Notes: a model not told the origin generated them from the sequence alone. Counted from the stretch's first letter, positions 5,840 to 60,989 are shown. The stretch: 64,000 nt of DNA from an uncultured Candidatus Peribacteria bacterium (GCA_964609035.1 CAZSQL010000003.1:4058-68057), one strand, 5' to 3'. Translations and numbers: made by a program.

Positions 5840-5990
5840 AATTAAACTTACAATAAAATGTTTTTTATAAAATTATTGTATATAACTTATATTATAATTC
5901 AATTAAAATAATCTATATATTAAATTTAAACTAATATAATTAGCGAAAGCTTAATCTAATAATTATTTTATCTTTTTTTAATTTAATTTA

Positions 5991-6188
5991 GGGGCTTCTT
6001 CATCTTTAAAAATAAGAAAAATCCAAATTGGGATACATATCCTCACCCCGCAATTCTGCGGGGTTCAGTCATCTAACAGCCACTATCCGACATCTTCGTT
6101 ACACTCAGACATCGGACCATCGGCAAACGTTATACGTCATAGTCCCATCTATAAAAAAAACATAAAGAGACAGGAAGAGCTCTTTTTT
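5991..6188 (+). ncRNA. Candidate structured RNA / repeat element, family member A
   Basis: 5' GCUuCUUC pairs with 3' GAAGAGC. Internal TAAC..GCC..GGC-AAAC-GTTA helix covaries with members B and D. Carries the CCCCGCAATTCTGCGGGG hairpin (6046-6063). Ends in the palindrome AAGAGCTCTT plus a T-run. Confidence 0.35.
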
Positions 6189-6196
6189 ATTTTAAC

Positions 6197-6547
6197 TTAA
6201 TTTTTTTTAGAAAATGACTTCTCTCGCCCGACTAACTGCTTACTAATAGACTCAATCATCTGATTGATAACAACAAAATCTTTCAAATCAATTTCTCTCA
6301 AATCCTTGCACAATCTTATCAACAATCTCACTACTTCGATATATCCTCTCGCCTGTTCTAGATAATTCTGTTTTTCTATGTGTGAATTAGCACGATAGAT
6401 AGCAATAATCAAGTCAATAGCTTCTTTCTTGATCGTTTCTCACAGCGTGTATTTGTAATCTCTTTTGAAATTACGTACGACCAAAAATAACTTTTGCAAC
6501 AAATCGTAGGAAACTTTGTAAACAGGTAAATTATCGTATATTGCCAT
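6197..6547 (-). CDS. avd: DGR accessory variability determinant (Avd; four-helix-bundle / 23S rRNA IVS protein family)
   Basis: MAIYDNLPVYKVSYDLLQKLF...IAIYRANS...VRLLIRLCKDL. Start overlaps the RT 3' end by 17 nt. Joins ORF-track pieces 6440..6673 and 6197..6412 through a TGA. Confidence 0.75.
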
Positions 6548-7748
6548 GGCAATATCATTGAGGATAAAGATTTTTAATTTCAGAAGATTTGAGTTTTCTG
6601 ATATTGGGAATGGCTTTTGCATATGATTTTGTGAAATGGAATTGTGACCAAAACTTATTGGAGAATTTATCAATCACTTTCTTTCTGATGTTGTACGTTC
6701 TATAATGATTGAGAATTCATAGGTAGGAATTAACTATCGATTGCGTAAGCTCTTTATCAAAATTTTTGCTTTTATTCACTTCCTGCACTTTTTTGTAAAA
6801 ATTCCCAATCGTTCTTTTGCGTATATAGGTACGATACGGCTTGATATATGCTCAAAGAAATTGTGCTCACTTGGTATAATGTTGAAAATAGATTTTCTTG
6901 GGATGAAGCGTAAGATGTAATTTTTTAGTCAGAAAATCTCTAATTTTGGAAATCGCAGAAAGTAATTTTTCCTTGTCAGTATCGATGATAACAAAATCAT
7001 CTACATATCTGCCATAATACGAAAATCCTAGTTCATACTTAATATATTTATCCAAACTATCCAAGTAAATATTGGCAAATAACTGACTTGTTAAATTTCA
7101 AATTGCAAGTCCTGTGTCCTTCGGAGAGTGAAACAGACTTTTGTCGTTTGGTAATCAATTTCAGTCAGATTTGGATCATTTGATAATGCAATTCTGAGTA
7201 GAATCATGAAATATGACCTGACGAATAAGTTTGATGAGAAAATCGTAATCAATAGTCAATCTTTCCCTTTTTTCGAACAAAAATGTTTCAATTTTTTCAA
7301 ACAATATCTGTTTGTCAATGTGCATAAAAAATCACTTGATATCGAGCTTGAGAATATAAACATCGCGACTATAATTTTGCGAGCAAGAACGAAGAAAATG
7401 TTCTACTCTTTTGATGCCAAAATGTGTTCACTTTTCTAATCTGCAGCTATAACTATCATAGATAAAATGACGATCAAATAGTTCGTAAATATAATTGTAA
7501 ATCAAGTGATGAATTATTCTATCACGAAAATCCGCGGCGAAAACTTCCCTTTGGACGGGATCTTTGATGATAAAGCAGATACTGGGACTGATAGCATAAG
7601 TTTCGTTCACTAAATCATTTCGCAATTCAATAATTTTTGATTCATAATTCATTTCAAAAGCAACAGCAGAATTTGTATTTCTTTTATGCTGACGAGTATC
7701 GTAGTATGCTTGGAATAAATCATAAAGTAGCTTGTCTGTATCTAACAT
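6531..7748 (-). CDS. Diversity-generating retroelement reverse transcriptase
   Basis: 405 aa joined from three ORF-track pieces in one frame. DGR-specific motif LAIGNLTSQLFANIYL (Gly is TGA) and catalytic YGRYVDDFVII. Confidence 0.9.
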
Positions 7749-7767
7749 TTTTCATAATCATATAAAA

Positions 7768-7806
7768 GCTGACCGAACCCCGCAGAATTGCGGAGAAATG
7801 ATCAGC
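7768..7806 (-). promoter_or_regulatory. Stem-loop in the TR-to-RT spacer of the DGR RNA
   Basis: Outer stem GCTGACC/GATCAGC (with a G-T pair) encloses CCGCAGAATTGCGG (7778-7793). Lies between the TR end (7814) and the RT start (7748). Confidence 0.5.
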
Positions 7807-7813
7807 TTATTCC

Positions 7814-7977
7814 AGTTCTTGAGCAGACGACCGCTGAAACCATAATTTCTATTATTATTGTTTCGATTCCATTTATTCTGATTGAAGTTTGCATTGTTTC
7901 CACCAGCCAACCAAACGTTGGATCGTTCTCCGATATTGTTGAATTTATTATTATTCGGATTCCAGTAGCCCGCAAGG
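7814..7977 (-). repeat. DGR template repeat (TR)
   Basis: 164 nt, aligns gap-free with 8241..8404. 20 mismatches, 18 of them at TR adenines on the coding strand. Rich in AAT/AAC codons. The 3' 28 nt (GGTTTCAGCGGTCGTCTGCTCAAGAACT) is identical to VR. Confidence 0.85.
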
Positions 7978-8133
7978 AATAAAGATAGCCACTAACTTTG
8001 TCATACTATCCTAGCGAATAATATGATCTTTTACTACCATACAGTTTTATATGGTGGGCTATTGAACTAGACATACACGCTCCTTGTTCCCGTAAGAACA
8101 AAGACTCTGGCAAAAAATCTTATAGAGAAAAAT

Positions 8134-8158
8134 GGACAAAATGCAAAGCATTTTGTCC
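8134..8158 (-). terminator. Hairpin terminator downstream of the DGR target gene
   Basis: Perfect 11-bp stem GGACAAAATGC-AAA-GCATTTTGTCC, followed on the minus strand by ATTTTT. Confidence 0.5.
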
Positions 8159-8223
8159 ACCGATATTTTGTTGAATTAGATTTTTTGCTTGAAATAGTCA
8201 ACATAGACAAATAGTCGGATGTT

Positions 8224-8236
8224 TCGGCTACGCCGA
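8224..8236 (-). promoter_or_regulatory. Short GC hairpin immediately 3' of VR (candidate DGR target-recognition hairpin)
   Basis: TCGGC-TAC-GCCGA begins 3 nt past the target stop codon and VR end. Position matches the hairpin/cruciform described downstream of VRs. Confidence 0.45.
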
Positions 8237-8238
8237 GT

Positions 8239-8997
8239 CTAGTTCTTGAGCAGACGACCGCTGAAACCATAATTCCTGTTAAAATTGTATCAACTCCATT
8301 CATACTGATCGAAGTCTGCACCGTCCCCACCAGCCAACCAAACGTGGGATCGTTCTCCGATATTGCTGAAAATATCATTATTCGGATTCCAGTAGCCCGC
8401 AAGGTGACCCTTGACTTCTTTATTAAAGAATTTCTTGTATTCGTCAGAACGATCTGGTTTATCTTTCATTTTCTCTTTAAGTTCATCAACCGTCATCAGA
8501 TATTTCTGTTCAACTTCTTCCTTGCTGCAATTCTTAGCTTTCATCACTTCTCTGATAAATGCATCATAAGTAATGAATATTTGTTCTCATTTTGCTGGTC
8601 ATTCAAGATATTCTACCACGTCTCACGTAGCATTTACTTTTACTTTCATCTCTCCTTTATTATAAACATTCCTTTTTTCTTCTTTCCATCCTTTGCTATC
8701 GATTTTGAACGTATCTTCCTCGAATTCTAATGATTTAGTAAGTGTTTCTTTGGATTCTTTTTTGCTAGAAACTTTCTTTTTAAGTTCATCGCCTCCATGA
8801 AGCATATTGTAGGCTTCTTCAAAAGAAACGCCCATTTTTTCAGCGACTTTTTTGATAAGTGCTATATCTTCTTTACGAATTTTTATTGTCTGTTGAAATC
8901 ATTCTGTTTGTTTTCGTCCATCTCTAGTTTGCTTAATAGTTTCTTGTGTCTTTTTCTTTTTTTGAGAAACATATTCTGCAACTTCATCATCAGACAT
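8239..8997 (-). CDS. DGR target (variable) protein, C-type-lectin/FISUMP-like C-terminus carrying VR
   Basis: 252 aa, ATG 8997 to TAG 8239. C-terminus ...LAGYWNPNNDIFSNIGE(CGA)SHVWLAGGDGADFDQYEWSGYNFNRNYGFSGRLLKN. Three ORF-track fragments in one frame joined by TGA. Confidence 0.8.
8241..8404 (-). repeat. DGR variable repeat (VR)
   Basis: Last 164 nt of the target CDS. Counterpart of TR 7814..7977 with adenine-specific differences. Confidence 0.85.
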
Positions 8998-9342
8998 AAC
9001 TTCTGCAAGTTTCTTTTGCTGTTCTTAAGTAATAGCACCTTGTTTCTTAATATTCTTGAGTATCGCTCAATTTTCTCTGATAATGTCTTGTGTTTTTTTG
9101 ATTTGATTGTTCATAGGAATAAAAGTAATGAAGTAAAGTTATGTAGTAATTATAATCAGAATTTTTTATTTTGCAAATTTTTGAAAGAGAAAATTTTACT
9201 GGTAAAATCTATCTGTTTTAGTTAGGTTTTAACACTTGAATCTTTTAAAGATTTTCAATAATTTACACTTGATTCTATTTTGCGAATTCTTATATTTTTA
9301 TCGGAAAAGACAAACTAAATATTTACGTATAATCGCTAATAA

Positions 9343-9936
9343 ATGGCTAATTTAAAAGACAAATTACTTAACTTAAACAAAGAAATACTAAAAAAAGATT
9401 TTTTAGAGAAATTAGTAAAGAGATTTTGATATACCTACGAAATGGACGATTTATCCAATCTGGGGTATATCTCCGTGATAAAAAATGGTAAACGATATTA
9501 TAATAATCAGATCAAAACCATCAAAAATCCGTATATCATCTGAGCTGCGTATATGGACTTCAAAGACTATATGTTCTGATGACCAAATTTCTTCAATAGA
9601 TACGGCTTTACGACTCAAGTTTCCAATATTTTCACCGTATATAATCTTCATTATTCCAAAGAGATCGAAATACTCGGAATCAAATATAATTTCAAGAAAG
9701 TAAAAAAAGAGTTTCTCTATGGGAAAGACACAAAAATGATCAATTATCACAATCTGTATTTTATGAATAAAGAAAGATGCTTTCTTGAATTTGTAAGGAC
9801 ATATAGCTCGTATGACGATACATTCTTCATAGATAGCTATAAGCTTTTAGATAAAGAGAATTTAGCCAAAATGATAAAAAAGTATCCTATCAAATCCGTT
9901 TTAGATAAAGTAAAAAATATAGAAAAATGTATATAA
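9343..9936 (+). CDS. AbiEi-like antitoxin / transcriptional regulator
   Basis: 197 aa. ...LSNLGYISVIKNGK.YY... resembles the AbiEi wHTH region. Stop overlaps the start of the downstream AbiEii gene by 10 nt. Confidence 0.55.
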
Positions 9937-10784
9937 ACAATATCAAAAAGTTTATTTGAGTAGATTTTGATTATTCCAAAAAAGATTTTCTTGAAATATT
10001 GGAATTATCCAATAGTTATGGATTCGACGCATATAAACTCGAAAAAGACTTTCTTCTGACGGTTATCTTGATTTTCATCTGAAGAAATTATAAGGAACTG
10101 ATTTTCAAAGGATGAACTTGTCTCAACAAAATTTATCTTGATTATTTCAGATTGAGCGAAGATTTAGATTTTGTAGTGATCAATACATGAAATAGAACAG
10201 AAAGAAAAGCGATATTAGAAGACTACAAACAGAGATTGACCAAAGATTTGGCTACACTCGGACTGGAAATCACCGATCAAAGAACGAAATATAACGAAGA
10301 TAGACAATGAATCTTCAATTTTTCGTATATTTCGCTCATAGACAATTCCCCACAAAATATTCAGATAGATATCACCATGAAAGAAAGATTAGAAATTGAG
10401 CCTGTAAGCAAACACATAAAATCGATTTTTATCAGCAAGACTATGGAAGAAAGCATTTTCATTGAAAACACAATAACCTGTATGGAATTTGATGAAATAG
10501 TTGCAGAAAAGACAAGAGCGAGTCTTACAAGAATACAACCGGCAATTAGGGATTTTTTTGATGTCTGGTATATCAAGAATTTTGCAAAATTCGACTTTGA
10601 AAGAATTATGGATTTGATAGAGACAAAACTGGAAGAATCGAATCATGAATATACTATTAATGAAAGCTTCGATTTGCTCGAAAAACAGATTGAAACAGAT
10701 TTGAAGCCCGTATTGAAAAAGAATTTCGAATTTGACCTGAAAGAGATATTCGAATTCATCAAACAACTGAAAACAAAAAAATAA
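9927..10784 (+). CDS. AbiEii/AbiGii-family nucleotidyltransferase toxin (DUF1814)
   Basis: 285 aa. LEKDFLLTVILIFI...LIFKGGTCLNKIYLDYFRLSEDLDFV is the family hallmark. Extends ORF-track 10377..10784 upstream through TGA codons. Confidence 0.8.
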
Positions 10785-10845
10785 TGAGCTGAATGTGAGC
10801 CACAAATGAGCCAAATAAATTTTAACTTTTTTTTAATTTAATTTA

Positions 10846-11037
10846 GAAGAGCCCTTCCTTTTAGTGATTGTGGGTTTAATTACGGACTACGAACCTACAA
10901 CACGCACTATCCGATATCCCCGACCTAATGGACTTCAACGGTTCGTCGGAGCATCGGACTAGTGCGAAACGTTGTCTGTCATATCCCTATAAGCAACTAA
11001 GTCCTTTCAGAAAGAAATTTAGAGGGGATTTTTTTTA
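10846..11037 (+). ncRNA. Candidate structured RNA / repeat element, family member B
   Basis: Closing pairing CCCTTC/GAGGGG. Nested helices ACAAC/GTTGT, CGCAC/GTGCG, TCCGAT/ATCGGA, CCGAC/GTCGG with a conserved unpaired AAAC. Ends GGGGA plus T8. Flanked on both sides by TTTTTTTTAATTTAATTT. Confidence 0.4.
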
Positions 11038-11176
11038 ATTTAATTTTTTTAGAAAAAGAAAACCCGCCACCACGAAGGTAAACGGGAAATGCTTTTTTAA
11101 CAACTCGAAATGAAAAATGTTTAAGTTATCACTATTTTTCTAAAGCATAACTAATTAAGATTCATTGTAACTAATG

Positions 11177-11201
11177 AAGCTCGGATGTGCCGAGCTTTTT
11201 C
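11177..11201 (+). terminator. Rho-independent terminator
   Basis: AAGCTCGG-ATGTG-CCGAGCTT followed by TTTC. Closes a roughly 150-nt unit that starts after the third TTAATTTAATTT..TAG motif. Confidence 0.6.
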
Positions 11202-11347
11202 TAATTATTAAAATATATATCATAATAAGTGCTTATTTCATTAATTAAGTATTTCTATTTAAAATAAGAAAAAATATAAAATACCGTATTATCCTAAAAA
11301 CAATACAAAAAATTTAAAGCAATTATACCAATACAATTAAGTCTAAT

Positions 11348-11968
11348 CTAAATAGTCCAAGACCCACGAATAACTCAAACTAAATAATAATATCATTGAT
11401 ATTCTTCAAAAACCAATGTAAGACTCATTCGATCCAATCATTCATATTGTGGATCAAATCAATCAAAATAATATTCTATCGATTCAGCACCAGGAAAAAC
11501 ATCATCAATATTATTTAAGTTATTTCATCTAGCAATTTTTTGATTTATCAAAATTTGGTCCGCATATAAGAATCCTGTAGAATAAACCCATTTTTTAAAA
11601 TAATTATATTTGGTCTCAATCAACTCAAAACCAGCTCCATCTGTATATCCCCACAAGAAAGTACCACTATTCAAATCACCTTGAAAATCATCTGGATACA
11701 AAACCATAGAATGATCTAGATCAACATAAGTATATGGAGAAAACCTAACTCATTTAACAGGATGTGCAAAATCAGACATTTCACTCCACTTGTCTCATTG
11801 CATCAAAGTCAATATATCTCTAGAATAATCAACAATATCAAAGTTTTTATTTATACTTTCTCAACTACCTAAAGATTGATTCTCTCAATCAAAAATATCT
11901 GTTTTTAAAGAACATCAAAACAAAAATAATGATATAATAACAAACAACATTAAAAGAACTTTTTTCAT
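11348..11968 (-). CDS. Hypothetical lipoprotein
   Basis: MKKVLLMLFVIISLFLFGCS: signal peptide plus lipobox whose Gly is TGA. 206 aa, ATG to TAG. Confidence 0.6.
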
Positions 11969-12023
11969 TTTAAATTTTAAAAAATAAAATCTATCTAAAA
12001 AGTCTTAAACCAAAATTACATAA

Positions 12024-12125
12024 AAGGTTTCAAAGGGCGCAACAGGTTTCAATAGGCTGAAAAGAGCATGACTTTTGTAACCCTTGCAACTTTGTAACCT
12101 TTGTAACTTTGTGGCCATTGAAACT
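12024..12125. repeat. Dyad array of GGTTTCAAT / TTGTAAC words (family 1)
   Basis: Left arm GGTTTCAAAGGGCGCAACAGGTTTCAATAGG, centre AAAGAGCATGAC, right arm CCTTGCAACTTTGTAACCTTTGTAAC. Same layout at 30944, 38755 and 43925. Confidence 0.7.
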
Positions 12126-12133
12126 TGATAACC

Positions 12134-12598
12134 TTATACTTTTAACTTGATAACTGTCTTTATATCTTCCAACCTATAACCTTTTCTCATAAGTTTTTGA
12201 ATAATATCAAATCAATCAACTCATCTTTTTTTGTAAGAATCTATTTCTTTTCTAATTTTCTGAAAAACACCAACAGATATATCTTCTTGATAGTCTTTTA
12301 TCACTTCATTTATCAATTTTTTGTCTACTCATTTTTGATATAATTTGTTAGTCACGGCAATTACTGGCTTTCATTTATTTACCAATTCGCTCCTAATATA
12401 ACTTTCTGCAAAAACTCTATCATCAGCAAATTTTTTTGATTTGAGATAATCCATCGTATATCTTATTTCATCACTATTATATCATTTTTGTTGCAATTTA
12501 ATTCTCAATTCTTTTTCAGTTTTTGGATAAACAGAAATGTATTTTAAAGCATACTGACAACAATCAGAATATAATGTTTTCTCTTCTTGTGTTGCCAT
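12134..12598 (-). CDS. recX: RecX family regulatory protein
   Basis: 154 aa. ...CCQYALKYISVYPKTEKELRIKLQQKGYNSDEIRYTMDYLKSKKFADDRVFAESYIRS... three-repeat helical RecX pattern. Confidence 0.7.
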
Positions 12599-12600
12599 AA

Positions 12601-13227
12601 TTATTTTTTTAAACTAAAAGTAACAGTTTTTTCATCAATATTGAATATAGAAATAATATCTCATTCTTGTTTTGAGCTTTCAATAGACTCCAAAAGCGCT
12701 TCTGTAGACAAAAATTCTGAAAACTTTGTGATAACAGAAACCATGTATTCATCATTTGTATGGTAAAACATCTTTACTTTGTCATCTACATTGTAATCCA
12801 CATCTTTTCTCATTTGATTTAAAAATCTAGAAACTTCTCTAGCCATTCATTCCATTTCAAGCTCTGGAGTGAGCTGTAAATCTAATTTTGCTATAACTCC
12901 ACCATCGATAGCCACATCATCTCCATCCAAACCTTGATAAGCTATTTCATAATCTTCTTTTTCCAAAATCCATTCATTTCCATTTTCATCAAAAACTTTT
13001 ACTTTTCATTCTCAAAGTTCTGTGATATTTCACATTTTTCCATATTTAATAATATTACCAGTATCTTTTGCAAATTTAGCAGACAATGCAGATCATAAAG
13101 GTTTAAATACTTTTGTAATTTTTATATCATCACCAAAAGATTGAATATCTTTTACATTAATTTCTTCCTTAATAATATTTCAATACTTGTCCAAAACATA
13201 ATCTACAGAAAAATCTCACATAATCAT
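12601..13227 (-). CDS. Stand-alone ORF equal to the C-terminal region of type-2 isoleucyl-tRNA synthetase
   Basis: 208 aa. FKPLGSALSAKFAKDTGNIIKY...AKLDLQLTPELEMEGMAREVSRFLNQMRKDVDYNVDDKV matches the IleRS C-terminal pattern (LD..IT.EL..EG.ARE..R.IQ..RK). No catalytic domain lies upstream. Confidence 0.5.
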
Positions 13228-13484
13228 AATTTTAAATTATAAAAATAATAATACTCTATATCATCAAACATCTTTTATTTATTTAAGTTTGATTTTCAAT
13301 TCAATAATTTAAGAAAAGTTTATTAAAGTACTTTTTACTAAAACAAAGTTAAATACTAAGAAACAGAATCAATTCTTGCATTTGAGGAAGAAATATTTAA
13401 TAATCAAGTATACACTGAAAAACTTGTTTTTTATACAAATCATGTTCCTATTTGTTACATAAGTAAGTAGCAAATGAAACATTA

Positions 13485-13560
13485 GTACAACTACTAGTTG
13501 TCTGTCATATCCCTAGAAGTAAATAAGTCCTTTCTGAAAGAAATTTGGAGGAGATTTTTT
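13485..13560 (+). repeat. Structured element family, reduced member C
   Basis: GTACAAC-TACTA-GTTGTCTGTCATATCCCTAGAAGTAAATAAGTCCTTTCTGAAAGAAATTTGGAGGAGA plus T-run. The 3' module is near-identical to that of B. Confidence 0.35.
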
Positions 13561-13578
13561 ATTTTAATTTAGATTTTT

Positions 13579-14358
13579 TTATATTCTAACACGTGTGTTC
13601 ATATGCTTTTCAAAAACATCCTTTAATTTTGTAATATATGTACCTACTTCTTTTAGTTCTTCTTTAGTTTTTTTATCTTTAGTATTATTAAACAGATAAC
13701 CATATAATTTTATCATATCATCAAGTATTTTTTTATTCATCATAAACCCATTCATTTTTTTATTGGTTTGTTGTATCTGATAAACACACTCATGTAAAAA
13801 CTTTTTTCCCAAAGGATAAAGTTCTTCTTCATTTTTTGCATCATTAAATTGATGTAAAATTTCATTAAATGTTCAATCAGGATCCCAATTATTGGTTTTT
13901 TTTATTCATGATAAATACAAATTTCAAATTTCATTTCTTAAACCATCAAACGAACCAATAAATCCTTTTTTTAATTTAATCAACTCCTCATTTTCACCAA
14001 CATTTTCTTTATTTTCTATTATTTCCTCTTTTTTTTCAGAATTTGTATTATCTTTTTCATCATTCAATTGTCACATCAAATCATCCATTTTACTATTTTT
14101 TTCTTCATCTGCTTTCATTTTCATATTATCCATCTCTTTTTTATGTTCTTCAGTATTGGCTTCTATTTGATCAACTTTTTCAGAAATGTCAGATTCTGAC
14201 GCTTCTGTTGTTTCTTTAGATTTAAGTTCTTTTATCTGATCTCTTATTTTTATAGCTTCCTCAAAATTATCTGATTCTACAGCTTCAGCTTTTTTTGCTT
14301 CAAGGTCTTTAATAAGCTCCTCATTAGTCTTTTCTGAAATATTAATTGAATTAATCAT
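13579..14358 (-). CDS. Hypothetical acidic protein with UVR-like motif
   Basis: 259 aa from two same-frame ORF-track pieces. ESDNFEEAIKIRDQIKELK resembles a UvrB/C (UVR) motif. Confidence 0.5.
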
Positions 14359-14465
14359 GATGACAATATTTTATGAAGTAAATTACACTTATAAAGTGTA
14401 ATCAGAATCAAAAAAAATGCAAATTTTACGCTTGATTTATCTTATTTTTATCTTAATTTAATTTA

Positions 14466-14563
14466 GAAAAAATCCCCTCCAAGTAACTAAGTAAGGGATA
14501 CGAACAGACAACAGCCGATACATGACATAACAAGTACGTCACAAAATCGGCAAACGTTGTCGG
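14466..14563 (+). ncRNA. Candidate structured RNA / repeat element, family member D
   Basis: GACAAC-A-GCCGAT...ATCGGC-AAAC-GTTGTC helix covaries with A and B. Preceded by TTAATTTAATTTAG. Confidence 0.35.
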
Positions 14564-14628
14564 AAAAGTTCAAAATAAACAAAAAAAGTGACATTACTGC
14601 TACTTAATATTTCTAAAACAAACAAAAA

Positions 14629-14874: not shown

Positions 14875-14956
14875 TAAGTTATCAAGTTTTCAAGTTATCA
14901 GGTTTTCAAGTTTATAATTTTAACTTGATAACTTTTAACTTTATACTTTTTAACTT
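14875..14956. repeat. Dyad array of GTTATCAAGTT / AACTTGATAAC words (family 2)
   Basis: AAGTTATCAAGTTTTCAAGTTATCAGGTTTTCAAGTTTATAA faces TTTTAACTTGATAACTTTTAACTTTATAC. Related arrays at 25921, 31211, 38060 and 57845. Confidence 0.7.
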
Positions 14957-21712: not shown

Positions 21713-21810
21713 TCATAATTATATCCAAAAATCAAAAATAAATCAAAAAAATCGTCTTTTGAAAACGATTTCAGTATACATTTTATCTTTTTTCTATGTA
21801 ATATTTGTTT

Positions 21811-21946
21811 GACAGTTTACAGTGTACAGTTTACGGTGTACAGTGCACAGTTTACAGTGTACAATTACCAATTACCAATTCCCAATAAACCACTTCCCAC
21901 TTCCTAATTCCCATTTCCCAATTAACCAATTACTAATAAACCAATT
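21811..21946 (-). repeat. Tripartite word-repeat element (copy 1)
   Basis: (CAGTTTACAGTGTA)n, then (AATTACCAATT)n, then AATAAACC and CTTCCCA/TTCCCAATT. Homologous copies at 49823 and 55372. Confidence 0.7.
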
Positions 21947-21989: not shown

Positions 21990-24260
21990 CTAATTTGTAA
22001 TTATGACAAAACTTCCAATAGGAATAGTTTCAGCCAAATGATTAATTAACTTTTGTTTAGATATGTCCGATTTTCAATTTAACTCATCTTCATCAAGAAC
22101 TCTTACACAAGCGCTTGAACTAGGTCATATTTTTTGTTCTATAGTTCAATGAATAGCAATATAAGGTGTTCGTGGTCATATAAGTGTCAACATTCATCAT
22201 TTTTCTCATCAATAATATCATTTTTCATCAATATCACTTTTATCAAAATGATCATACAACTGTTCTCACATAACCTTATTTATAACCATATAATATCAAA
22301 CTGGCGTTTTATTATCTCAAAAAACTTTTCTATCATTTTTATATTCCAAACTATCTGTTCATTTACCAACTCATACCTTATACTTCTCAAGTAAATCTTT
22401 TCAATCTATAGAATAAACAAACATAGTATATTCAGATTTATCAACAATTATTAGTTTCTTTCAACTTTTCAAAGCATTCTCATATGTTTCTTCAGATCTT
22501 ATGTATTTGTATATTGCATTAGGTAGATTATGAGCAACAGTAGACCACAAATTTTTTATTTTTTTTTCTATAATCATTTTTTTTCAATCTCATTCTTTTT
22601 TGTAATCTTCAACTCAGCTTCAAGAAATCAATCATTGGTTTGATAACCGACTATCCCTAAAGACTTTACTTAAATTTGGATCAAAATATGTAGCATCTTT
22701 TAATTGATATTTTCAATTTCATATATTGGTCAATTTTCAATTTTTTACCATCAAATCCATTTGTTTTTTAGCTTTTTCTTTAATATCCTTCTTTGTTACA
22801 TCTGGCCTTCAGTCTTTATCTAAATCTATTCATTCATCAATCATCTTTGCAACTTCATCCAGTATATCATCGATATCTTTACCAAACAATGATCATTCTA
22901 AAAATAAAACCACATCATGTCATGCTTTCAGTGCCATTATTATTCTATTTGCTTCACTATCTTCTATTCACAAAGTTTTTATTCATTCTATAGCTCATTT
23001 CATTCATAAATCGTCAGAAAAAATAATTCAATTTTTTAATGGATTTTTTTGACCAATTTTAGTTTTTAATATTTCTAATATTTTTTCATCATATGTAATA
23101 ACTCATCCGCTTCAAAGAACTCTTTTATTTCAAGATATATGGGTAGTCATAAGTCATCCAACCTTATCTCAACTTGAGAGTTTAATACCATTTTCATTTA
23201 GAAAATTAATAAATTCAATATTTTTTTGTAAAATATTTATATATTCTTCATTTCAAGTTGATTTCTTAGCTACTGTAATACAATGCTTTACATATTTTTC
23301 ATCTAAGAACGGATTCTCTCAGTTTATTATGTTTTTAAACACAGCAATAGATCAATCATCTTTATTCATATTTGATGAGTCTGTTTTTTCGTGTGGATTA
23401 CCTGTTTTACCTGTTCATACAAAATGTTTTGGCACCAAAAGTGTCTTGTTTTCATACGATTGGTATCAGTCAATAAATGCTGAAATTATATCTTGTCATA
23501 TAATAAAATTATCTCAAAAAGATCTATCATCTTTTGCCATATAGTCTTTATCTCACTTTCAATCAAAATCATCAACAATATCTACATTTGGTCAATATAC
23601 TACATCAACTCATATATATTCCATAATTTTTCTAATAGATTTTCAATACTGTTGCATCATTAAAATAAAATCTAATCTTTCTTGATTTGTTCAATTCCAA
23701 AATAAATACTTATATTTTTTGCCAAGAAATTCAGCAGATGGAAATGCAGATAGATTTCATCAACTTTGTTTTTTTTCTTCTTCTCTTAAATAAATTATTT
23801 CTTTAGGAACTCAAAAACGTAAGATTTCTTCTTCTGATATAGACATTATATTTTGTACATATCATCACTCAAAATCAGTATGAATAAGTGTTGGTCATGT
23901 GGCTTCTCATCTTATTCTTTCAACAGCTTGTTTTTTTTCTTCAATCGTTGGGTAATTTTTTGCCCATAAAAAAATATTTTTAGTATTAGGCAATCAATCT
24001 ATAATATCTGGATTTATTCCAAGATTTTCATGTGCCTTTCTATAATATTTATTATCAAATTCTCAAGCTACAACAATATAGTCTAAAAGTTGTCTTGTAT
24101 GTAAATCATCAATATTTCGAGCAAAATCCATACTCTGATGTTGTTGATTTACAAGTCTTTGCTTATAGTTTTTTAGTCAAACAACTATCGCTAAAATTAT
24201 AAGTGGTCTAGTCCACTTATTCCAAGTACATTTTCTTATCGTATTTAAAACGTTTTTCAT
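21990..24260 (-). CDS. Fusion protein: GH3 beta-N-acetylhexosaminidase-like domain plus L,D-transpeptidase (YkuD) domain
   Basis: 756 aa. N-terminal TM, IHTDFEGGYV, YGPNVDIV, KHFVGTGKTGNPHE. C-terminus ...YIAIHGT...SSACVRV. The end was fixed by a coordinate-based frame check. Confidence 0.65.
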
Positions 24261-28254: not shown

Positions 28255-30921
28255 TTAACTTCTTCACTTCTTAATCCTATTTACCACAAACGCCAACACA
28301 AACAAAACCAACAATATTATTGCTATTTGCAACCACATCATAGATGATAATGGTTTTGTCTGAAATATTTCTGCCAAAAATGGAACATAAACCACCAAAA
28401 ACACTAATCCAACAGACAATAATACTGCACCAAAAAGCCATTTGTTTGACCAAAATGGTAAATTATATTCATCTCTAATCATCCATATTCTAAGCATCTC
28501 CAACAAAGTCAAAAGCACAAAAACTCAAGTCCTAGCTTCCACAAGATCTATTGAGTAGTTTTCCATAAACAAAAACAAACATCAAGCAGTCATAGCAATA
28601 GATAGGATTATTATATTTATTATCATATTTCTATCTACAATCTTAGATCACAATCTTCTAGGTTTGTGCGACATAATATCTGGACTAGCTGGATCTACTC
28701 ACAAAGCAAGAGCTGGCAATCCATCGCTCACAAGATTGATCCACAAAATTTGTATTGCTATCAAAGGCAAAGGTAACCCAATCAACACACTTATAAAAAT
28801 AATCAGTATCTCAGCAAAATTGGTAGAAAGAAGATAATTTACAAATTTTTTGATATTATCATAAATTCATCTTCACTCATATATGGCGTTTACTATCGTA
28901 GCAAAATTATCATCCAAAAGTATCATATCACTTGCTTCTTTAGTCACATCTGTGCCAGTAATTCACATCGCCAGACCAATATCAGCATACTTCAAAGCTG
29001 GAGCATCATTGACCCCATCTCCAGTCATAGCTACTATATTTCATTTTTTCTTCAAAAGTTTGACTATTCTCTGTTTGTGAGCAGGACTAACTCTAGCAAA
29101 TACTCAAATATCATCTATCATTTTTCATAATTTTTTGTCATCTATCTTGTCCAATTCCAGCCCATCCATAGCCATTCACTTAATTCAAAGTTCATGAGCT
29201 ATAGCTTTGGCTGTAATCACATTGTCTCCAGTAATCATAACTACTCTAATCCCGGCTCTTTCACAAATAGCTATCGAATCCCTTACTTCTATTCTAGGCG
29301 GATCTATCATCGCCTGCAACCCCACAAACACCAATCATGATTCTAATTGATAATTGATAGTTGATAGTTGATAATTATCAATTTTCAATTTTCAATTATC
29401 AACTGATTTATATGCAAACCCAAGCACTCTCAAAGCAGATTCTGCAAATTTTTTATTTTGATCTAATATTTGTTTCTTATCTTTTTCTGTCATCTTTTTT
29501 ATCTCACCATTTATCAACACATGACTACACTTCTCCAATAAAATTTCAGGCGCCCCCTTACTAAACATAATTCACTCTTCACTTTTCACTCTTCACTCTT
29601 CACTATATATCGTCGTCATCAACTTCCTCTCAGAATCAAAAGGAATTTCATCCAACAATTTATATTGTTTTTCCAAATCTTTTCTTACAAGTCATCATTT
29701 GATAGCACTGACAAGCAAAGCCACCTCAGTAGGATCTCAAACAATATTTTCTCAATTTATAGCAGAATTGTTGCACAAAACTCAAATTTTTAATATCTGT
29801 TCTAGTGAATTTATATTTTCTTTATTTTTGGACAGAAAATCTTTTTTTCCAAAATCTTGATAACCTACTCCATCCAAATCAAAAACCTTATCGTCTACAA
29901 AAATATGTTTTACTGTCATTTCATTTTTGGTCAAAGTTCATGTTTTGTCTGTACAGATAATATTTACAGATCACAATGTCTCTACACTAGAAAGTTTTCT
30001 CATCAAGGCATTTTTTTTGACCAATCTTTTTACTCACAATCACAAAGCAATAGTCACTACAGCAGGAAGTCACTCTGGTATCGCTGCTACAGATAAAGCT
30101 ATAGCTACCAAAAATGCTTGCTGCCAAGTATTTCAGACAAAAAATATAGCACTCACAAAAATAACTGCACATATCACAATCACTACAGCACCAAGCCATT
30201 TACTCAATTTATCTAAATCTTTTTGTAAATTAGTTTGTTTTTCTGGAGCTTCTTGTATCATACCAGCAATTTTACCAATCTCAGTCTGCATACCAATAGC
30301 TACCACAATAGCTCTACCATGTCATTTGGTCACTACAGTACCAGCAAAAAGCATATTTTTTTGGTCTCACAAAGCCGAATCTTTGTTTATAGTTTCTATA
30401 TTTTTGGCAACCGGCATAGACTCACCTGTCAGTACAGCTTCGGCCACTTCAGCACTCATAGATTGTATTATACGAGCATCAGCTCAGATTTTATCTCCTG
30501 CATCAAAAATCAAAATATCTCATACAGTCAAATACTGTGAATCTATCAATATCTCTTTTCCATTTCTGATTACTCTAGATTTCAAACTAGCCATCTTTTT
30601 CAAAGATTCTATAGACTTCTCAGCCTTGTATTCTTGTACAAAACCAAGTATTGAATTTAAAATTACTATCAAAATAATCACCACACTATCTACGGCTTCT
30701 CATACAAATATGGAAACTACAGCAGCAATAATCAATATCAAAATAAGAAAACTTTTGAACTGATTCAAGAAAACTTTCCAAGCACTGATTTTCTTTTCAT
30801 TGGTCAAAATATTTAATCCATATTTTTCTTGCTTATCTTGGACTTGTTTGTCAGTCAATCAAATTTCCACATCTACAGCCAATTCTTTGGCTACATTTTC
30901 TATAGGTTTTTGGTAATACAT
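28255..30921 (-). CDS. P-type cation-transporting ATPase (P2, Ca2+/SERCA-like)
   Basis: 888 aa. ICTDKTGTLT (Gly is TGA), [28 protein letters not shown]. The ORF-track C-terminal piece 28264..28518 ends at a TGA, so the gene continues 3 codons to TAA. Confidence 0.9.
29347..29402. repeat. Imperfect 56-nt palindrome of TTGATAATT words lying in frame inside the ATPase CDS
   Basis: TTGATAATTGATAGTTGATAGTTGATAATT|ATCAATTTTCAATTTTCAATTATCAA. Translates without stops as ...[21 protein letters not shown]... just before [10 protein letters not shown]. Confidence 0.8.
29571..29603. repeat. Tandem TTCACTC/TTCACTT words in frame inside the ATPase CDS
   Basis: TTCACTCTTCACTTTTCACTCTTCACTCTTCAC encodes SEEGRVKSEEG immediately before the conserved KGAPE. 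Confidence 0.75.
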
Positions 30922-31080: not shown

Positions 31081-31291
31081 TTTAATAATTATACCCACCA
31101 TACCCAAAAATAGCAAAAACAAACAAAAGCTAAGCGAAGATTTGTTTGACAAATAAAGAAAATATTAGATTGAAAAAAAATAACCAATCATTATACTAAG
31201 CACTAGTAATAAAGTTATCAAGTTCATCAAGTTTATAAAGTCTTATACTTTTAACTTGAAAACTTTTAACTTTATAACTTTACACTAACTT

Positions 31292-31682
31292 GGGGATGTA
31301 CAGGCTTCGATGAAAGATTCTCATATCTAATAACTGCCACTACTCGATGAGCGTACCGAGTATACTAATCGCTCAGCATCTAAAAATGCAAACTCAAAAA
31401 ACTTGTTAGCGAGAGCTAACGCCTTCGTTTTGAACTACGCTTAGTTCTACGATTGTATCAACCGGTTCTGCTAGACACCTACTAGGTAGACGGAGACATA
31501 AGTAGGTACCGCTACCTCTGGTAGCAAATGTCGATATGACAAAAAATCCATTGCCTGTTTGTTGGCTTTTGGATTTGCCAGTCATAAGGACACTAAATCT
31601 ACGGCTTAATAAACAAACTATTGTGGTAAGCGTTATTATTTATGTCTTTTAGACGCGAGTTCGACTCTCGCCATCTCCACCA
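31292..31682 (+). ncRNA. ssrA: tmRNA (transfer-messenger RNA)
   Basis: 5' GGGGATGTACAGGCTTCGATG..., 3' ...GGACGCGAGTTCGACTCTCGCCATCTCCACCA (T-arm plus acceptor). Candidate tag frame GCA AAC TCA...TAC GCT TAG gives ANSKNLLARANAFVLNYA. Confidence 0.9.
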
Positions 31683-38753: not shown

Positions 38754-38754
38754 A

Positions 38755-38880
38755 ACACAAAGGTCTCAACAGGTTGCAAAAAGTTTCAATAGGTTGCAAT
38801 GGGTTTCAAGGGCTTCAAAGAGCATGGCCCTTGCAACCTTTGCAACTTTTGTAACGCTTGTAACTTTGCAATATTTTTAT
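38755..38880. repeat. Dyad array of TTGCAAC/TTGTAAC words (family 1)
   Basis: Right arm CCTTGCAACCTTTGCAACTTTTGTAACGCTTGTAACTTTGCAAT has a 9-nt period. Centre CAAAGAGCATGGCC. Left arm holds the inverted words. Confidence 0.7.
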
Positions 38881-43924: not shown

Positions 43925-44095
43925 TACAAAAGATTACAAAGGTTTCAATAGGTTTGCAATAGGTTTCAATAGGTTTCAAAGGGTTACAATAGGTTTCAAA
44001 AAACATGGTATTTGCAACCCTTGAAACTTTGTAGCCTTTGAAACATTGCAGCCTTTGAAACTTGTAACTTGTAACTTTTAACTTTCTAACTATTA
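43925..44095. repeat. Dyad array of AGGTTTCAAT / CTTTGAAAC words (family 1)
   Basis: Five to six phased AGGTTTCAAT units, centre AAAAACATGG, then TTGCAACCCTTGAAACTTTGTAGCCTTTGAAAC...TTGTAACTTGTAAC running to 5 nt before the ATG at 44099. Confidence 0.7.
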
Positions 44096-46415: not shown

Positions 46416-47366
46416 TTACTCATCCAATAAATCATGAACCTCTTTCAAATATTTATCATCTACATGAGTATATATCTGTGTAGTAGTTATACTAGAATGA
46501 CCCAATAAAGTTTGCACAGCCCTAATATCTGCTCATTTTTTCAAAAGTGTAGTAGCAAAACTATGACGAAGTGTATGTGGTGTCACTTTCTTTTTTATTC
46601 ACGCTAGATCTTTATATTTTCTAACTATATCTTCTATTGAATTTCTACTCAGTGGCTTTCACATACTATTTCCAGATAAACTTACAAATAAATAGTCTGA
46701 ATCATCGTATCTAGCTTTTAAATACTCTAACAAAGCTTCTCTAGCATGTTTTGTCATAAATATAGCTCTAATTTTTGATCATTTTCATACTACAGAAAAT
46801 TGTTTGCTATCAGCATTTATTTGAGATCTTTTTATACTCACAAGCTCTCAAACACGAAGCCCAGTCCCATATAACATCCAAAGTATAGCAATATCTCTTT
46901 TAATCTTTAAACTATTTTCTACATTCTGAATTCATCATTTTACACTCTTCATAGGTGCTTCCATTATTTTTTGCACCTCATCCTCCAACAAATAATTTAC
47001 TTCTCTGTTTGGTATTTTAGATAACTCTAATTTTTCTGGAGACATGCAATCTATATCATTTTTCAAACAAAACTTAAAAAACGATCTTATCGCCACTATA
47101 TGGTAATTTATCGTTTTTTTTGATAGACCAAGACCATTTAAATACATTCTATAATCAAGCACATGCATTGATTTAATCTCAGTTACATTTATATCTCAGA
47201 TATAATTTACAAATCTATTTAGCCACAGACTATAATTTTCCAAAGTTTTAGGACTATTATTTTTTTCATATTCCAAATAATAAAGAAATTTTTCTATAAG
47301 AGATTCTATAGATAAGCTAAATCTAGAATTCTGTTCCTGTTGAAACTTCTTGTTGTTCAATACCAT
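46416..47366 (-). CDS. Tyrosine recombinase, XerC/XerD family
   Basis: 316 aa. ...GLRVGELVS...[39 protein letters not shown]. Confidence 0.8.
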
Positions 47367-49740
47367 TATCTAATATACCATTTTGTAAAGTACTTTCAGC
47401 AGAGCTTAAAGTATTACCAGTAGAATCTGAATCATTATCTGTATAAGTTGAATTATTATCAGAAGAATCTACAACATTTTGCTCATTACGTAAATTATTT
47501 AATCTTTCTATATAATTATCAAATCTAACTATATATCAATCAATTTTAGATTTATCTATTTCATTACCACTTTCAATATCATTTATAAATTGTTCCGCAT
47601 AATTAGCAATATATAATCAATATTTCATTGCAGTAGAATTATTATTTTGCCTTCACCAAGTATTAAATTCATTTCATTTTGCCAAATATCATTTAAGACT
47701 TTCTAATAAGTCTATATTTAAAGAAGATGTTTCATTATTTTCCAAAACATTATCCAAATCCTCAAAAGCATTGAAGTCTGCTGCGCCATGACCTGTTTGT
47801 CACTCTACAAAACCTGTTTCTTCTAATGGGATTTCAAAATCACCAGATCATATATTTTCCATCTCAAGTTGTCATGCCAAACTGTTAGGGTCTACTTCAT
47901 CTTCTTCATACAAATCACCAGTTAAGACATTTCAGGTCTCATCCAAAGCTACAGAAACATCAGAATTATCAGAATATTCTATAGATGCCTGATTATCATT
48001 TTTTATAGCATTCATTATCTCTTTTATTTCTTCTGGATACATCTTACTGATAATCATAAATCATCCTACCAAAAGTAACACAATCAAAACAAAAATTTTT
48101 ATTCCTGAATGACTATTTTTCTTATTCAAAAATTCAGAAGATGAAACGACTTGAACATTATTTGGTATATTTTGCAAATTAATATCCAAACCACTATTCT
48201 GAGTTGCATCCACAACTTGTGTTGTCGTGTTGCTATTTTGCGATTCTACTACATTATTTTTCATTTGTTCTGCTGGCATTACAACATCACTTGTTTGGAT
48301 AGAAGAACTAGTAGCATCTATTGTTTTGTTGTTTTCATTCTCTATTTTTATTGGTTCAATTTGAGTAGATTGTATAATATCTTCTATATTAATACCATTA
48401 CTTGATCAAGCAATAATTTCATCAACATTTATTCAATTATTTTGACTGTTTTCAGAAACATTTTGTGCAGCTTCTCATAAGTCTAATTTATTAGAATTTT
48501 CAGGATTTCCCAAAGAAGATATATCTATTGCTCATTTCTGATCAGAATTTAAGATATTTTGAACTTGCACAAAATCACTTTCATTTGGAATATAATTAGA
48601 ATTACCCACAACCATATCTCAAGTGTCAGAGACCAATTCTCATTGATTATTTTGTACCACAGGCTCATTTGTATTTTTAATAATTTCCATATTATTACTT
48701 CATTCAGTTAGATTATTTCCTTGAAAATTACTTTCTTCAATCCTATTTTCTTGAACATCTACATTTAAAACATTTATATTTTGATTTACTTCTTCTACAG
48801 GAATTTCGATTTTAGACTCATTTCCTTGAACACTTTCTTCTTCAGAAAATAAATCTGACAAATCATCAACTTTTGTAGCAGCTTCAACATTTTGATCAAG
48901 CAAATTTTCTTTATCTTTTGATTCATCTGATACAAAAGGTAAGTCTAAAGAAGACAATTTGTTTTCATCTAACAACAAAGAACCATCTTTTGGTAAAACA
49001 TTTTCCTCAACTACATTTTCTGGTTTTGGTAAAATTTCTTCTACTTTTTTATCTTCTTCCAACAACCAATCATTCTCTTTTTCTACATTATCATTTTCTA
49101 CTACAACTTGGTCAGGAATAAATTCATTATTTTGATTTTCTAAATTGATATCAGAAAAATCAATCTGTTGAGAATCCCTAGAGAAATTGTCTTGATTTAT
49201 TGAAGACAAGTCTACTCAATCTCAATTTAAATTATCATCACTTTTATTTAAATCATTTAATGAATCATCCTGCATATTAACATCTTCTGTGACATTTTCA
49301 TCTTCAACAGGATTAGTTTCATCTTCCACTAAATTATTTTCTGTAAAATCTGATTTTACTTCATTTTCAGATATGTCTTTATTTTCAATAAAATCAGGTT
49401 CACTTTGAATTTCATCAACCTTATCTTCATTTACATTTAGCTCACCTTGCTGTGCATCTATATTATCAGATGAACCAACATTTATATTTCATAAATCCAA
49501 AGTATCTATTTTTTGAGAATCATCTCAAGAATCAGATACAATTAAATCTTGATTTTTTTCTACTGGCAAATCCAATCAATCCAAATTTAAATCTATATCC
49601 AAAGTATCTATTTTTTGATTTTCTCAAGAAATATTTTGGTTTGTAGATTGATCATCCGATTGAGTTCAAGCAGGATTAGACGGACTAAAACCTGATGAAT
49701 TAGCTGGATTTAAAGTTGTTTGATTTTCTTCTGTAGGCAT
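47323..49740 (-). CDS. Large acidic low-complexity protein with a single central TM helix
   Basis: 805 aa. D/E/N-rich N-terminal about 560 aa, TM IKIFVLIVLLLVGGFMII, C-terminal domain. 3' end overlaps the recombinase start by 44 nt. Confidence 0.55.
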
Positions 49741-49822
49741 ATCAAAAAAATTAATTTATAAAATTCAATCAATTATACTTATAAACAAAAAAAAATGCAA
49801 ATTTTTAAGCACTTTTTTTATA

Positions 49823-49930
49823 TAGTGTACAGTTTACAGTTTACAGTTCAGAGTTTGTAGTTCAGAGTTCAAAGTTCACCAATTACTAATTACCAATTAC
49901 TAATAAACCAATAAACCGCTTCCCAATTAA
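49823..49930 (-). repeat. Tripartite word-repeat element (copy 2)
   Basis: GTGTACAGTTTACAGTTTACAGTTCAGAGTTTGTAGTTCAGAGTTCAAAGTTCACCAATTACTAATTACCAATTACTAATAAACCAATAAACCGCTTCCCAATTAA. Confidence 0.7.
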
Positions 49931-59253: not shown

Positions 59254-59280
59254 CAAAAATTCAACTAAAATATATAAAAG

Positions 59281-59345
59281 TTATCAACTATCAATTATCA
59301 ATTATCAATTATCAATTATCAACTATCAATTATCAATTAATTATC
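59281..59345. repeat. Tandem ATTATCAA(T/C)T words overlapping the comM-like stop codon
   Basis: TTATCAACTATCAATTATCAATTATCAATTATCAATTATCAACTATCAATTATCAATTAATTATCAAC. Same words as the in-CDS palindrome at 29347. Confidence 0.7.
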
Positions 59346-60896: not shown

Positions 60897-60989
60897 TTAA
60901 GTATAAAATATCAAAGTTCATTGTCAAAAATATTTTTTACAAAACAAAAATCAAGACTTTTTTTGACAAAAAAATAATTTTTTATAAAT

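Follow-up and report, generated by a model that had tools for sequence, protein, structure and literature searches.

Integrons are regarded as a trait of mid-sized genomes from a limited number of phyla, and are defined by an integrase whose extra domain reads the extrahelical bases of its sites. In canonical attC sites these bases are located on the R''-L'' arm, where they set the choice of strand (PMC2727003). An integrase with the IntI-specific additional domain (intI_Cterm) is what defines an integron in the account of Messier and Roy (2001), as cited in PMC8352920, and in PMC4889954, and complete integrons were not found in very small genomes by Cury et al. (PMC4889954). Here we analyse four intergenic elements, A, B, C and D, in a stretch of 64,000 nucleotides from an uncultured bacterium deposited as Candidatus Peribacteria (GCA_964609035.1 CAZSQL010000003.1:4058-68057; the whole stretch is called the window below, and its positions are counted from its first letter). 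Comparison with relatives in public contigs makes it highly probable that A, B, C and D are attC-like recombination sites which delimit three mobile gene cassettes, in an integron-like array belonging to an Absconditabacterales-type host that uses genetic code 25.

Two other kinds of described system share part of this organisation. Xer/dif modules (pdif modules, and IMEXs or integrative mobile elements exploiting Xer) are likewise small gene modules bounded by sites of Xer-family tyrosine recombinases; dif-type sites are, however, 28-bp double-stranded sites with two 11-bp arms rather than covarying hairpins of 75-200 nt, and the genomes considered here also carry a separate, ordinary XerD-like protein. 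Repetitive extragenic palindromic sequences (REP), bacterial interspersed mosaic elements (BIME) and other intergenic palindromic repeats are also structured, intergenic and multicopy, but those are dispersed in both orientations, bound no cassettes, and have neither a fixed exchange point nor the matching of segment ends that we term cognacy below. Full-text searching of the literature on integrons in Absconditabacteria, Gracilibacteria, Patescibacteria or the candidate phyla radiation gave nothing relevant.

The G+C content of the window is 27.8%. TGA is about as frequent in frame as a glycine codon (the 756-codon open reading frame (ORF) at 21990-24260, for instance, has 61), and ORFs are fragmented if TGA is read as a stop (table 11). 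This recoding fits genetic code 25 of Absconditabacteria/Gracilibacteria, with which the genes of the window were translated.

A family of hairpins with a covarying core

The elements were first described in an annotation of the sequence, here called the original prediction, as an intergenic family with covarying helices (A, 5991-6188; B, 10846-11037; C, 13485-13560; D, 14466-14563), and the coordinates and quoted motifs proved correct. Public collections were scanned with a pattern taken from the blocks common to A and B, TATCCGA...CATCGGAC...AAACGTT, which gave three genome contigs, one labelled Candidatus Absconditabacterales, and 33 metagenome contigs, some seven of which are chance matches in unrelated DNA. 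A covariance model of the hairpin core, built from the relatives in other contigs, returned 71 matches in 30 sources, all public contigs and mostly Absconditabacterales with TGA recoded. In the window the model recognises B (10886-10987, 104 bits, E ~5e-24), A (6062-6145, 51 bits, E ~1e-10) and D (14497-14572, 47.5 bits, E ~1e-9), and with filters off it detected no further sites in the 64 kb. At their 5' edge A, B and D share an exact 14-mer, TTAATTTAATTTAG. Element C is without a core; over 64 nt it is 91% identical to the 3' end of B.

A site can be modelled as an imperfect hairpin, made up of a basal helix in which only the AAC/GTT pairs are fixed, an asymmetric unpaired spacer, a covarying stem in which one base is bulged, and a tip that varies. 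In the spacer, a single A (5' side) is opposed to RRAC (3' side); the conserved unpaired AAAC reported at the outset holds in the window, but family-wide it relaxes to RRAC. The most divergent members have in common only ...YAAC-A-(stem ... stem)-RRAC-GTT-R.... In an alignment fitted to this structure, 84.7% of cells are paired over 63 distinct sites, against at most 34% with slid partners, which confirms the covariation first proposed. Elements A, B and D have the covarying hairpin core. Among the 62 aligned sites AAC/GTT is unchanged in 61-62, the inner helices are 87-90% paired and covarying, and cells changed on both sides number 280 as against 100 +/- 9 in shuffles. All 20 of the 20 inner-helix pairs vary on both sides, as illustrated by CGCACTA/TAGTGCG, GCTGCTA/TAGCAGC and CGTACTA/TAGTACG in one helix and by CCCCGAC/GTCGGGG, CTCTGGC/GCCAGAG and CTCCTAC/GTCGGAG in another.

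The wobble pairs are distributed unevenly between the strands. After dereplication to 37 clusters, the inner helices show 13 G.T pairs on the modelled (gene-sense) strand and 35 A.C mismatches (G.T wobbles when read from the other strand) across 18 of the 20 pairs. This rarity of G.T and excess of A.C on the gene-sense strand argues against a sense-strand RNA, and suggests that the folded substrate is bottom-strand single-stranded DNA, as in attC sites.

Arrays, break point and matching cassette ends

All matches of a locus lie on one strand, forming co-oriented arrays between genes with a site spacing of 0.5-5 kb; examples are eight sites in 13.7 kb (L005), six in 8 kb (L016) and six in 12.6 kb (L025). 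Most members of the family are compact sites of 75-105 nt between ORFs, without leader, terminator or T-run, and in compact arrays each site lies just 3' of a co-oriented ORF. The 44 inter-site segments have a median length of 1.1 kb, 25 of them hold exactly one ORF, and their ORFs are oriented with the sites in 59 cases and opposite in 30. What lies between sites is diverse single genes, with no transposon bodies.

Similarity between copies stops immediately after AAACGTT, and the break point is placed inside ACGTT. An identical leader and core is followed by unrelated DNA in L026 versus L036, in L010 versus L012/L023 and in two copies within L013, and one class of 3' flank occurs behind different cores and leaders. 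Scored over five positions outside AAC/GTT, pairing within a site in situ is only 2.34 of 5, as compared with 2.48 of 5 for random sites from other loci. When the 5' arm of the downstream site is set against the 3' flank of the previous one, pairing rises to 4.23 of 5 over 31 adjacent pairs, 61% of which are perfect, with runs of 6-7. Since pairing is 4.23 across sites versus 2.34 in situ, each inter-site segment carries both halves of one site. Complementary segment ends of this kind, together with exchange at GTT, are typical of integron gene cassettes. Next to AAC/GTT on the outside, one side of a site varies without regard to the other (CG 21, UG 13, UA 8, other 20), and the four combinations of YAAC with GTTR occur at about the frequencies calculated for random assortment. 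The core travels with the 5' arm: cassettes carrying a diversity-generating retroelement (DGR) in the window, L025 and L013 all end like B, in the same type-1 leader and TATCCGA core, and differ in the site at which they start.

The same rule orders the elements of the window. The end of the A trailer is complementary to the start of the B leader at 12 of 13 positions, and a chimera of the B 5' half and the A 3' half closes end to end, which neither A nor B does in situ under DNA parameters. The 3' flank of B is cognate to the 5' arm of D (5/5, run of 6). A chimera of the D 5' half and the C 3' half folds into an end-to-end rod (-26.6 kcal/mol, z -6.4), whereas in D with its in-situ 3' flank only the core folds (-11 kcal/mol, z -1.4). 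Immediately before C, cassette 2 ends in a decayed 5' half-site from which the core is deleted, ...GTACAAC-TACTA at 13480-13496 (ACAAC-TACTA-GTT); there the core model reaches only 9.5 bits (13476-13513).

Several claims of the original prediction have to be recast in this light. It had A and B each closing their own ends; the closure is better between halves of different elements, and the 5' part of D likewise pairs with the 3' part of C and not with its own flank. The four-member family is real, but C and D are not independent members: a single site is split between them, with C as its 3' half and D as its 5' half. The shared GTCATA(G)TCCC motif also exists as described, and turns out to be an outer extension of the basal helix, its pairing partner being GGGAYTAYGA of the cognate site's leader. 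This motif, the supposed closing stems and the long leaders and trailers are the two ends of cassettes. A 'structured mobile element', which had been offered as the second choice, comes close to the truth.

Strand exchange would accordingly be placed inside ACGTT, with everything 5' of GTT (leader, 5' arm and core) passing to the upstream cassette and everything from GTT onward to the downstream one, so that a cassette excised as a circle would rebuild a complete, fully paired site from its two ends. For cassette 3 the predicted circular junction reads ...AAATCGGCAAAC joined to GTTGTCTGTCATATCCC... (D core with C trailer), and the predicted empty site matching its loss reads ...GTACAACTACTA joined to GTTGTCGGAAAAG. 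For cassette 1, the predicted junction would be the B core joined to GTTATACGTCATAGTCCC.

Variation between strains falls at the same point. The contigs L046 (97.6% identical to the left flank of the window) and L047/L048 (95.6%) keep the A leader beside the same GATase gene, but their core differs and nothing beyond GTT is shared; the DNA of L046 continues directly with a gene for an RsmB-family methyltransferase in convergent orientation. With the same leader, a new core and new DNA after GTT, synteny breaks at the site between close relatives. Upstream of its A-type leader, L046 also has about four tandem copies of a 24-nt unit (AATAATCTATATATTAAATTTAAA) at 9800-9910, of which the window has one copy (~5908-5930).

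The original prediction preferred to see in the elements a functional RNA, and a family of ~200-nt structured non-coding RNAs, with the elements as genes or cis-acting parts that each have a promoter-like AT-rich box and an intrinsic terminator, would account for the strongly covarying helices. RNA folds of the elements lie well under shuffled controls, a stem followed by a T-run terminates A, B and C, a conserved AT-rich box precedes A, B and D, and type-2 leaders hold a promoter-like TTGAAA-16-TATAGT sequence. We nevertheless regard this explanation as very improbable. The 5' and 3' parts assort independently about a fixed break in ACGTT, the 3' part pairs with the 5' part of the next element and not with its own, half-elements (C, D and one in L003) would be non-functional RNAs, and most sites are the compact kind without leader or terminator. 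G.U pairs are few on the gene-sense strand, the mismatches favouring wobble on the opposite one. Co-oriented arrays, the cassette logic and a dedicated tyrosine recombinase at other loci (see below) also tell against it. An Rfam search, another check proposed at the outset, found nothing over A-D at the gathering threshold or at E <= 10, in agreement with the earlier statement that no known RNA class was recognised; in the window Rfam matches only the transfer-messenger RNA (tmRNA) and a sub-threshold RT-7 stretch, both away from A-D, and a tRNA/tmRNA scan gave the tmRNA only.

Three narrower candidates were considered and rejected. A hammerhead or other ribozyme core did not fit, as judged by eye, the CUGAUGA and UH motifs being absent around GAAAC. 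A retron, a DGR template RNA or a TnpB/IscB guide scaffold, suggested by the succession of a conserved and a variable part, was set aside because the elements lie on the strand opposite the DGR, such nucleases are not nearby, and the 'variable' part follows cassette cognacy. Integration of an island into an RNA gene (a tRNA-like attB, C repeating the 3' end of B) was discarded on account of the many full sites per array and their differing cores.

A tyrosine recombinase linked to the arrays

A crude motif screen for tyrosine recombinases returned nothing, but phmmer with XerD as a query did detect two, the XerD-like protein of the window and a partial one in L027. The former is ordinary, lies 32 kb from the array and is distinct from the array-associated proteins described here. 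The partial gene of L027 lies 2 kb from a site and is divergent from it, and its homologues make up a family of ~270 aa in Absconditabacterales and Gracilibacteria records. On NCBIfam models this family scores 187-196 bits as an integron integrase (TIGR02249, cut-off 265), 202-222 bits as XerA (cut-off 220) and 160-180 bits as XerC/D; its best match in the PDB is VchIntIA, the Vibrio integron integrase (2A3V, E 2e-42).

The gene has a fixed position relative to the sites. At all five loci having both the gene and enough upstream sequence (L037, L038, L042, L043 and L044), the sites all lie upstream of the gene, on the strand opposite to it, and the partial gene of L027 has the same divergent arrangement; on its other side the recombinase gene is bordered by housekeeping genes. 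The genomes with this recombinase also carry a separate XerD-like gene. When the start of the first cassette is located by the cognacy rule, it falls in L042 and L043 on a conserved hairpin ~190 bp upstream of the recombinase ATG, and in L027, L037 and L038 on a related hairpin further upstream. This hairpin heads the array as an attI-like primary site. Motifs of such an attI-like platform are absent from the window, where neither type of hairpin nor the conserved CTGACAAAGTCAGGACAAAA motif was found. In L038 (3470-3851) and L037 (9172-9852), the recombinase gene has a co-oriented PemK-like toxin gene directly upstream, between it and the attI-like hairpin.

The structure of the sites, their arrays, the break point, the cognacy of cassette ends, the variation between strains and the linkage to the recombinase are shown by these comparisons. 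From them we infer that the likely catalyst is the 270-aa tyrosine recombinase, related to integron integrases and XerA, which would act on a single-stranded bottom-strand substrate and through circular intermediates. ORFs resembling AAA-ATPase/DUF4143 proteins (family assigned by eye only) also occur beside sites; these are probably cargo and not recombinases.

Hairpin sites with a fixed, cleavage-like point and a wobble bias suggestive of single-strand folding could in principle serve some other system that mobilises folded single-stranded DNA, such as IS200/IS605 (PATE-like) elements or group IIC introns targeting the hairpins, the proximity of the recombinase being coincidental. The GC-rich sequence described below could then be a site-targeting element. 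With the recombinase linked to the arrays at five of five loci in a fixed divergent geometry, phmmer with the IS608 TnpA and with a serine recombinase (Hin) empty for all loci and the window, and diverse single genes in place of transposon bodies between the sites, we consider such a system very improbable. That the hairpins are duplicated intergenic terminators or insulators with no role in mobility, the arrays being gene-dense accessory regions, is extremely improbable: the T-runs after A, B and C, the AT-rich flanks with stops in all six frames and the placement of sites between convergent or tandem genes would fit, but compact sites have no T-runs, and the homology break fixed at ACGTT, the cognacy of cassette ends, the strict co-orientation and the synteny breaks between strains 95-98% identical would all go unexplained.

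The GC-rich sequence recurs in several unrelated arrays after the flank GTTGAGACGAAATAGCTCCGC (L006 2153-2250, L022, L047 2700-2865, L001 80-93 and 3325-3340), and likewise follows GTTGAGACGAAATAGCTCC in several loci. It may be another element that targets the sites.

Comparison with integrons

The described systems nearest to these sites are integrons, above all sedentary chromosomal integrons and clusters without an integrase. Like attC sites, those studied here are imperfect palindromes of ~75-120 nt whose conservation is mainly structural; their base is AAC...GTT, with AAC followed by G on the bottom strand, and they have an unpaired spacer, a bulge and a tip that varies (definitions of PMC2727003 and PMC4889954). 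As in integrons, arrays are co-oriented, cassettes of ~0.5-1.2 kb mostly have a single ORF upstream of the site, and exchange takes place at GTT, so that what follows GTT is part of the downstream cassette and is matched to the site which that cassette carries. The array is headed by a divergent gene for a tyrosine recombinase and by a primary site beside it (5/5 recombinase loci, also L027), the cargo is rich in toxin-antitoxin and defence genes, and clusters without an integrase occur.

The sites also depart from attC in several respects. Their spacer has 1 nt versus 4 nt, and their R boxes seem to read (N)4-YAAC / GTTR-(N)4 and to agree only in part with RYYYAAC / GTTRRRY: every inspected site has GTTR with YAAC as its partner, and the outer positions are off RYYY/RRRY, for example in CCTACAAC, TCCGACAAC and CATCTAAC. 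Some have complementary leaders and trailers of ~95 nt, giving a ~200-nt rod that ends in a T-run. Against a class 1 integron the site model gave only a non-significant 7.6 bits, at the aadA2 attC and on the bottom strand of that site. Unlike in integrons, the site at the head of the array is itself a hairpin, and the host genome is very small and uses an alternative genetic code.

The recombinase shows a similar mixture. It is 29% identical to IntI1 across both domains, including GxRISE...L.VKD.DF...GKG.KDR and the RHRY catalytic region, and scores higher on the integron-integrase model than on XerC/D. It is, on the other hand, shorter than IntI proteins (270 aa versus ~320-337 aa), remains below the TIGR02249 cut-off and scores similarly on the archaeal XerA model.

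With three cores and one half-site within 8.6 kb and no array-type recombinase across the 64 kb, the array of the window is comparable to an integrase-less cluster, or CALIN (a cluster of attC sites that has no integron integrase): it has at least two sites and no integrase nearby, an assignment by analogy only, the sites not being canonical attC.

Several observations weigh against an integron-like array in the window. In the sites, the bulge and the three extra spacer bases (RRAC versus A) are on the R'-L' arm, which is the junction arm, and not on R''-L'' as in attC (PMC2727003). The IntI-specific additional domain is absent from the recombinase, residues ~199-224 of VchIntIA and ~193-245 of IntI1 being without counterpart, and no member of the 270-aa family was found in the 64-kb window, where the sole tyrosine recombinase is XerD-like. 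Arrays L001/L014 break the cognacy rule, and the cognacy of A to B is only 3/5 in the basal helix. Most cassette genes of the window are antisense to the sites, which is not so in compact arrays of other contigs; with 4.8 and 2.5 kb, cassettes 1 and 2 are long, and the genes of cassette 2 look ordinary (RecX, an IleRS fragment). Covariation and wobbles were counted on an alignment that had been fitted to the structure of the model; a MAFFT alignment of 27 sites agrees on the covariation. Finally, the evidence is wholly comparative, and no excision product or circular cassette was observed.

On balance we lean slightly towards a distinct integron lineage in Absconditabacterales, and probably in related code-25 Patescibacteria, characterised by an integrase without the IntI additional domain, by a site asymmetry on the opposite arm, and by whole DGRs and toxin-antitoxin or defence systems as cassettes. 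If it exists, such a lineage would either stand as sister or ancestor to integrons or have arrived at the same logic independently, and its integrase would be missed by tools that demand the IntI-specific domain. A working cassette system in episymbiotic, recoded bacteria with genomes of ~1 Mb would widen the range of integrons and would explain how tiny genomes shuffle their accessory functions, among them DGRs, AbiE, restriction-modification and further defence genes. The combination of a recombinase lacking the extra domain with a mirrored site asymmetry would offer a natural comparison for how recognition of single-stranded DNA hairpins and strand choice evolved from Xer-like recombinases. 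For annotation there is also a warning, in that conserved, covarying and 'RNA-like' elements can be DNA sites.

Predicted cassettes of the window and their cargo

The features of the window are listed in Table 1. The 5' half of A belongs to the left chromosomal flank, and the first bases of cassette 1 are those that follow.

Table 1 Candidate sites, predicted cassettes and other features of the window
Feature	Position	Strand	Remarks
Site A, 5' half	5991-6128	+	Leader 5991-6069, 5' arm CATCTAAC 6070-6077, core to unpaired AAAC 6125-6128
A junction and 3' trailer	6129-6210	+	GTT 6129-6131, GTTATACGTCATAGTCCC..., GGAAGAGCTC, T-run, AT-rich tail; first bases of cassette 1
Predicted cassette 1	6129-10970		DGR (-) and AbiEi/AbiEii (+); ends with B leader and core
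avd	6197-6547	-	Pfam bAvd
DGR reverse transcriptase	6531-7748	-	RVT_1; IGNLTSQ and YVDD motifs
Template repeat (TR)	7811-7977	-	DGR template repeat
RT-7-like RNA	7978-8111	-	Sub-threshold Rfam RT-7 match, 46 bits, E 1.6e-8, gathering 116.8
Variable repeat (VR)	8238-8404	-	C-terminal end of target gene 8239-8997
DGR target gene	8239-8997	-	Contains VR
AbiEi	9343-9936	+	Toxin-antitoxin pair with AbiEii
AbiEii	9927-10784	+	Pfam AbiEii
Site B, 5' half	10846-10970	+	Type-1 leader, 5' arm CCTACAAC 10894-10901, TATCCGA-type core; 3' end of cassette 1
B junction and 3' trailer	10971-11054	+	GTT 10971-10973, GTTGTCTGTCATATCCC..., GAGGGGA, T-run, AT-rich tail; start of cassette 2
Predicted cassette 2	10971-13496		Lipoprotein-like ORF, RecX, IleRS C-terminal domain
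Lipoprotein-like ORF	11348-11968	-	Cassette 2
RecX	12134-12598	-	Cassette 2
Stand-alone IleRS C-terminal domain	12601-13227	-	Matches only that domain (DUF5915); adjoins RecX
Element C	13497-13585	+	Junction GTT 13497-13499 and 3' trailer only; start of cassette 3
Predicted cassette 3	13497-14555		C trailer, UVR-motif protein gene, D leader and core
UVR-motif protein gene	13579-14358	-	Pfam UVR; single gene between C and D
Element D	14466-14572	+	Leader, 5' arm CAGACAAC 14505-14512, short core, AAAC, GTT 14556-14558, non-cognate flank GTTGTCGGAAAAG; last site of array
tmRNA gene	31292-31682	+	Tag peptide ANSKNLLARANAFVLNYA
XerD-like recombinase	46416-47369	-	245 bits on XerD model; 32 kb from array

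Cassette 1 contains a complete DGR, with a reverse transcriptase carrying the IGxxxSQ motif, Avd, and an adenine-biased TR/VR pair in which 18 of the 21 mismatches fall at TR adenines. The same combination of DGR and AbiE with the same end structures is present in L025, and syntenic DGR (+AbiE) cassettes occur in L025, L013 and L007; the 3' end of avd directly follows an element in the window, L007, L027 and L036. A link of the elements to DGRs and toxin-antitoxin loci, raised in the original prediction, is real, but it is indirect, such genes being cassette cargo. The RT-7-like stretch lies immediately 5' of the template repeat, and may correspond, in this lineage, to the structured portion of the DGR RNA. 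In cassette 2, the ORF matching the C-terminal domain of IleRS could be a gene fragment or a free-standing domain.

The long sites of the window are bracketed on both sides by an AT-rich motif, a T-run followed by AATTTAATTTAG (and ATTTTTTTAG), as a direct and not an inverted repeat. It is found at 5978-5991, 10833-10846 and 14453-14466 and in the tails at 6184-6214, 11035-11054 and 13559-13585, and it places stop codons in all six frames. It might act as a promoter, an insulator or a binding site.

Other repeats of the window

Many intergenic regions of the window hold short tandem arrays with units of 7, 10 or ~17 nt (ACAGTTT/ACAGTGT; TTGCAANAGGTTTCAA; AACTTGATAACTTTTAACTT; CAATTAT). They are located at 21798-21945, 49801-49927, 38754-38879, 43934-44091 and 12018-12155, and at 14912-14955, 31226-31286, 29343-29402 and 59270-59336; related arrays recur at distant loci. 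A hairpin repeat, GTAAGGGCGATTANTAATCGCCCCTAC, is present in three copies within ~500 bp (60974-61017, 61330-61373 and 61453-61496).

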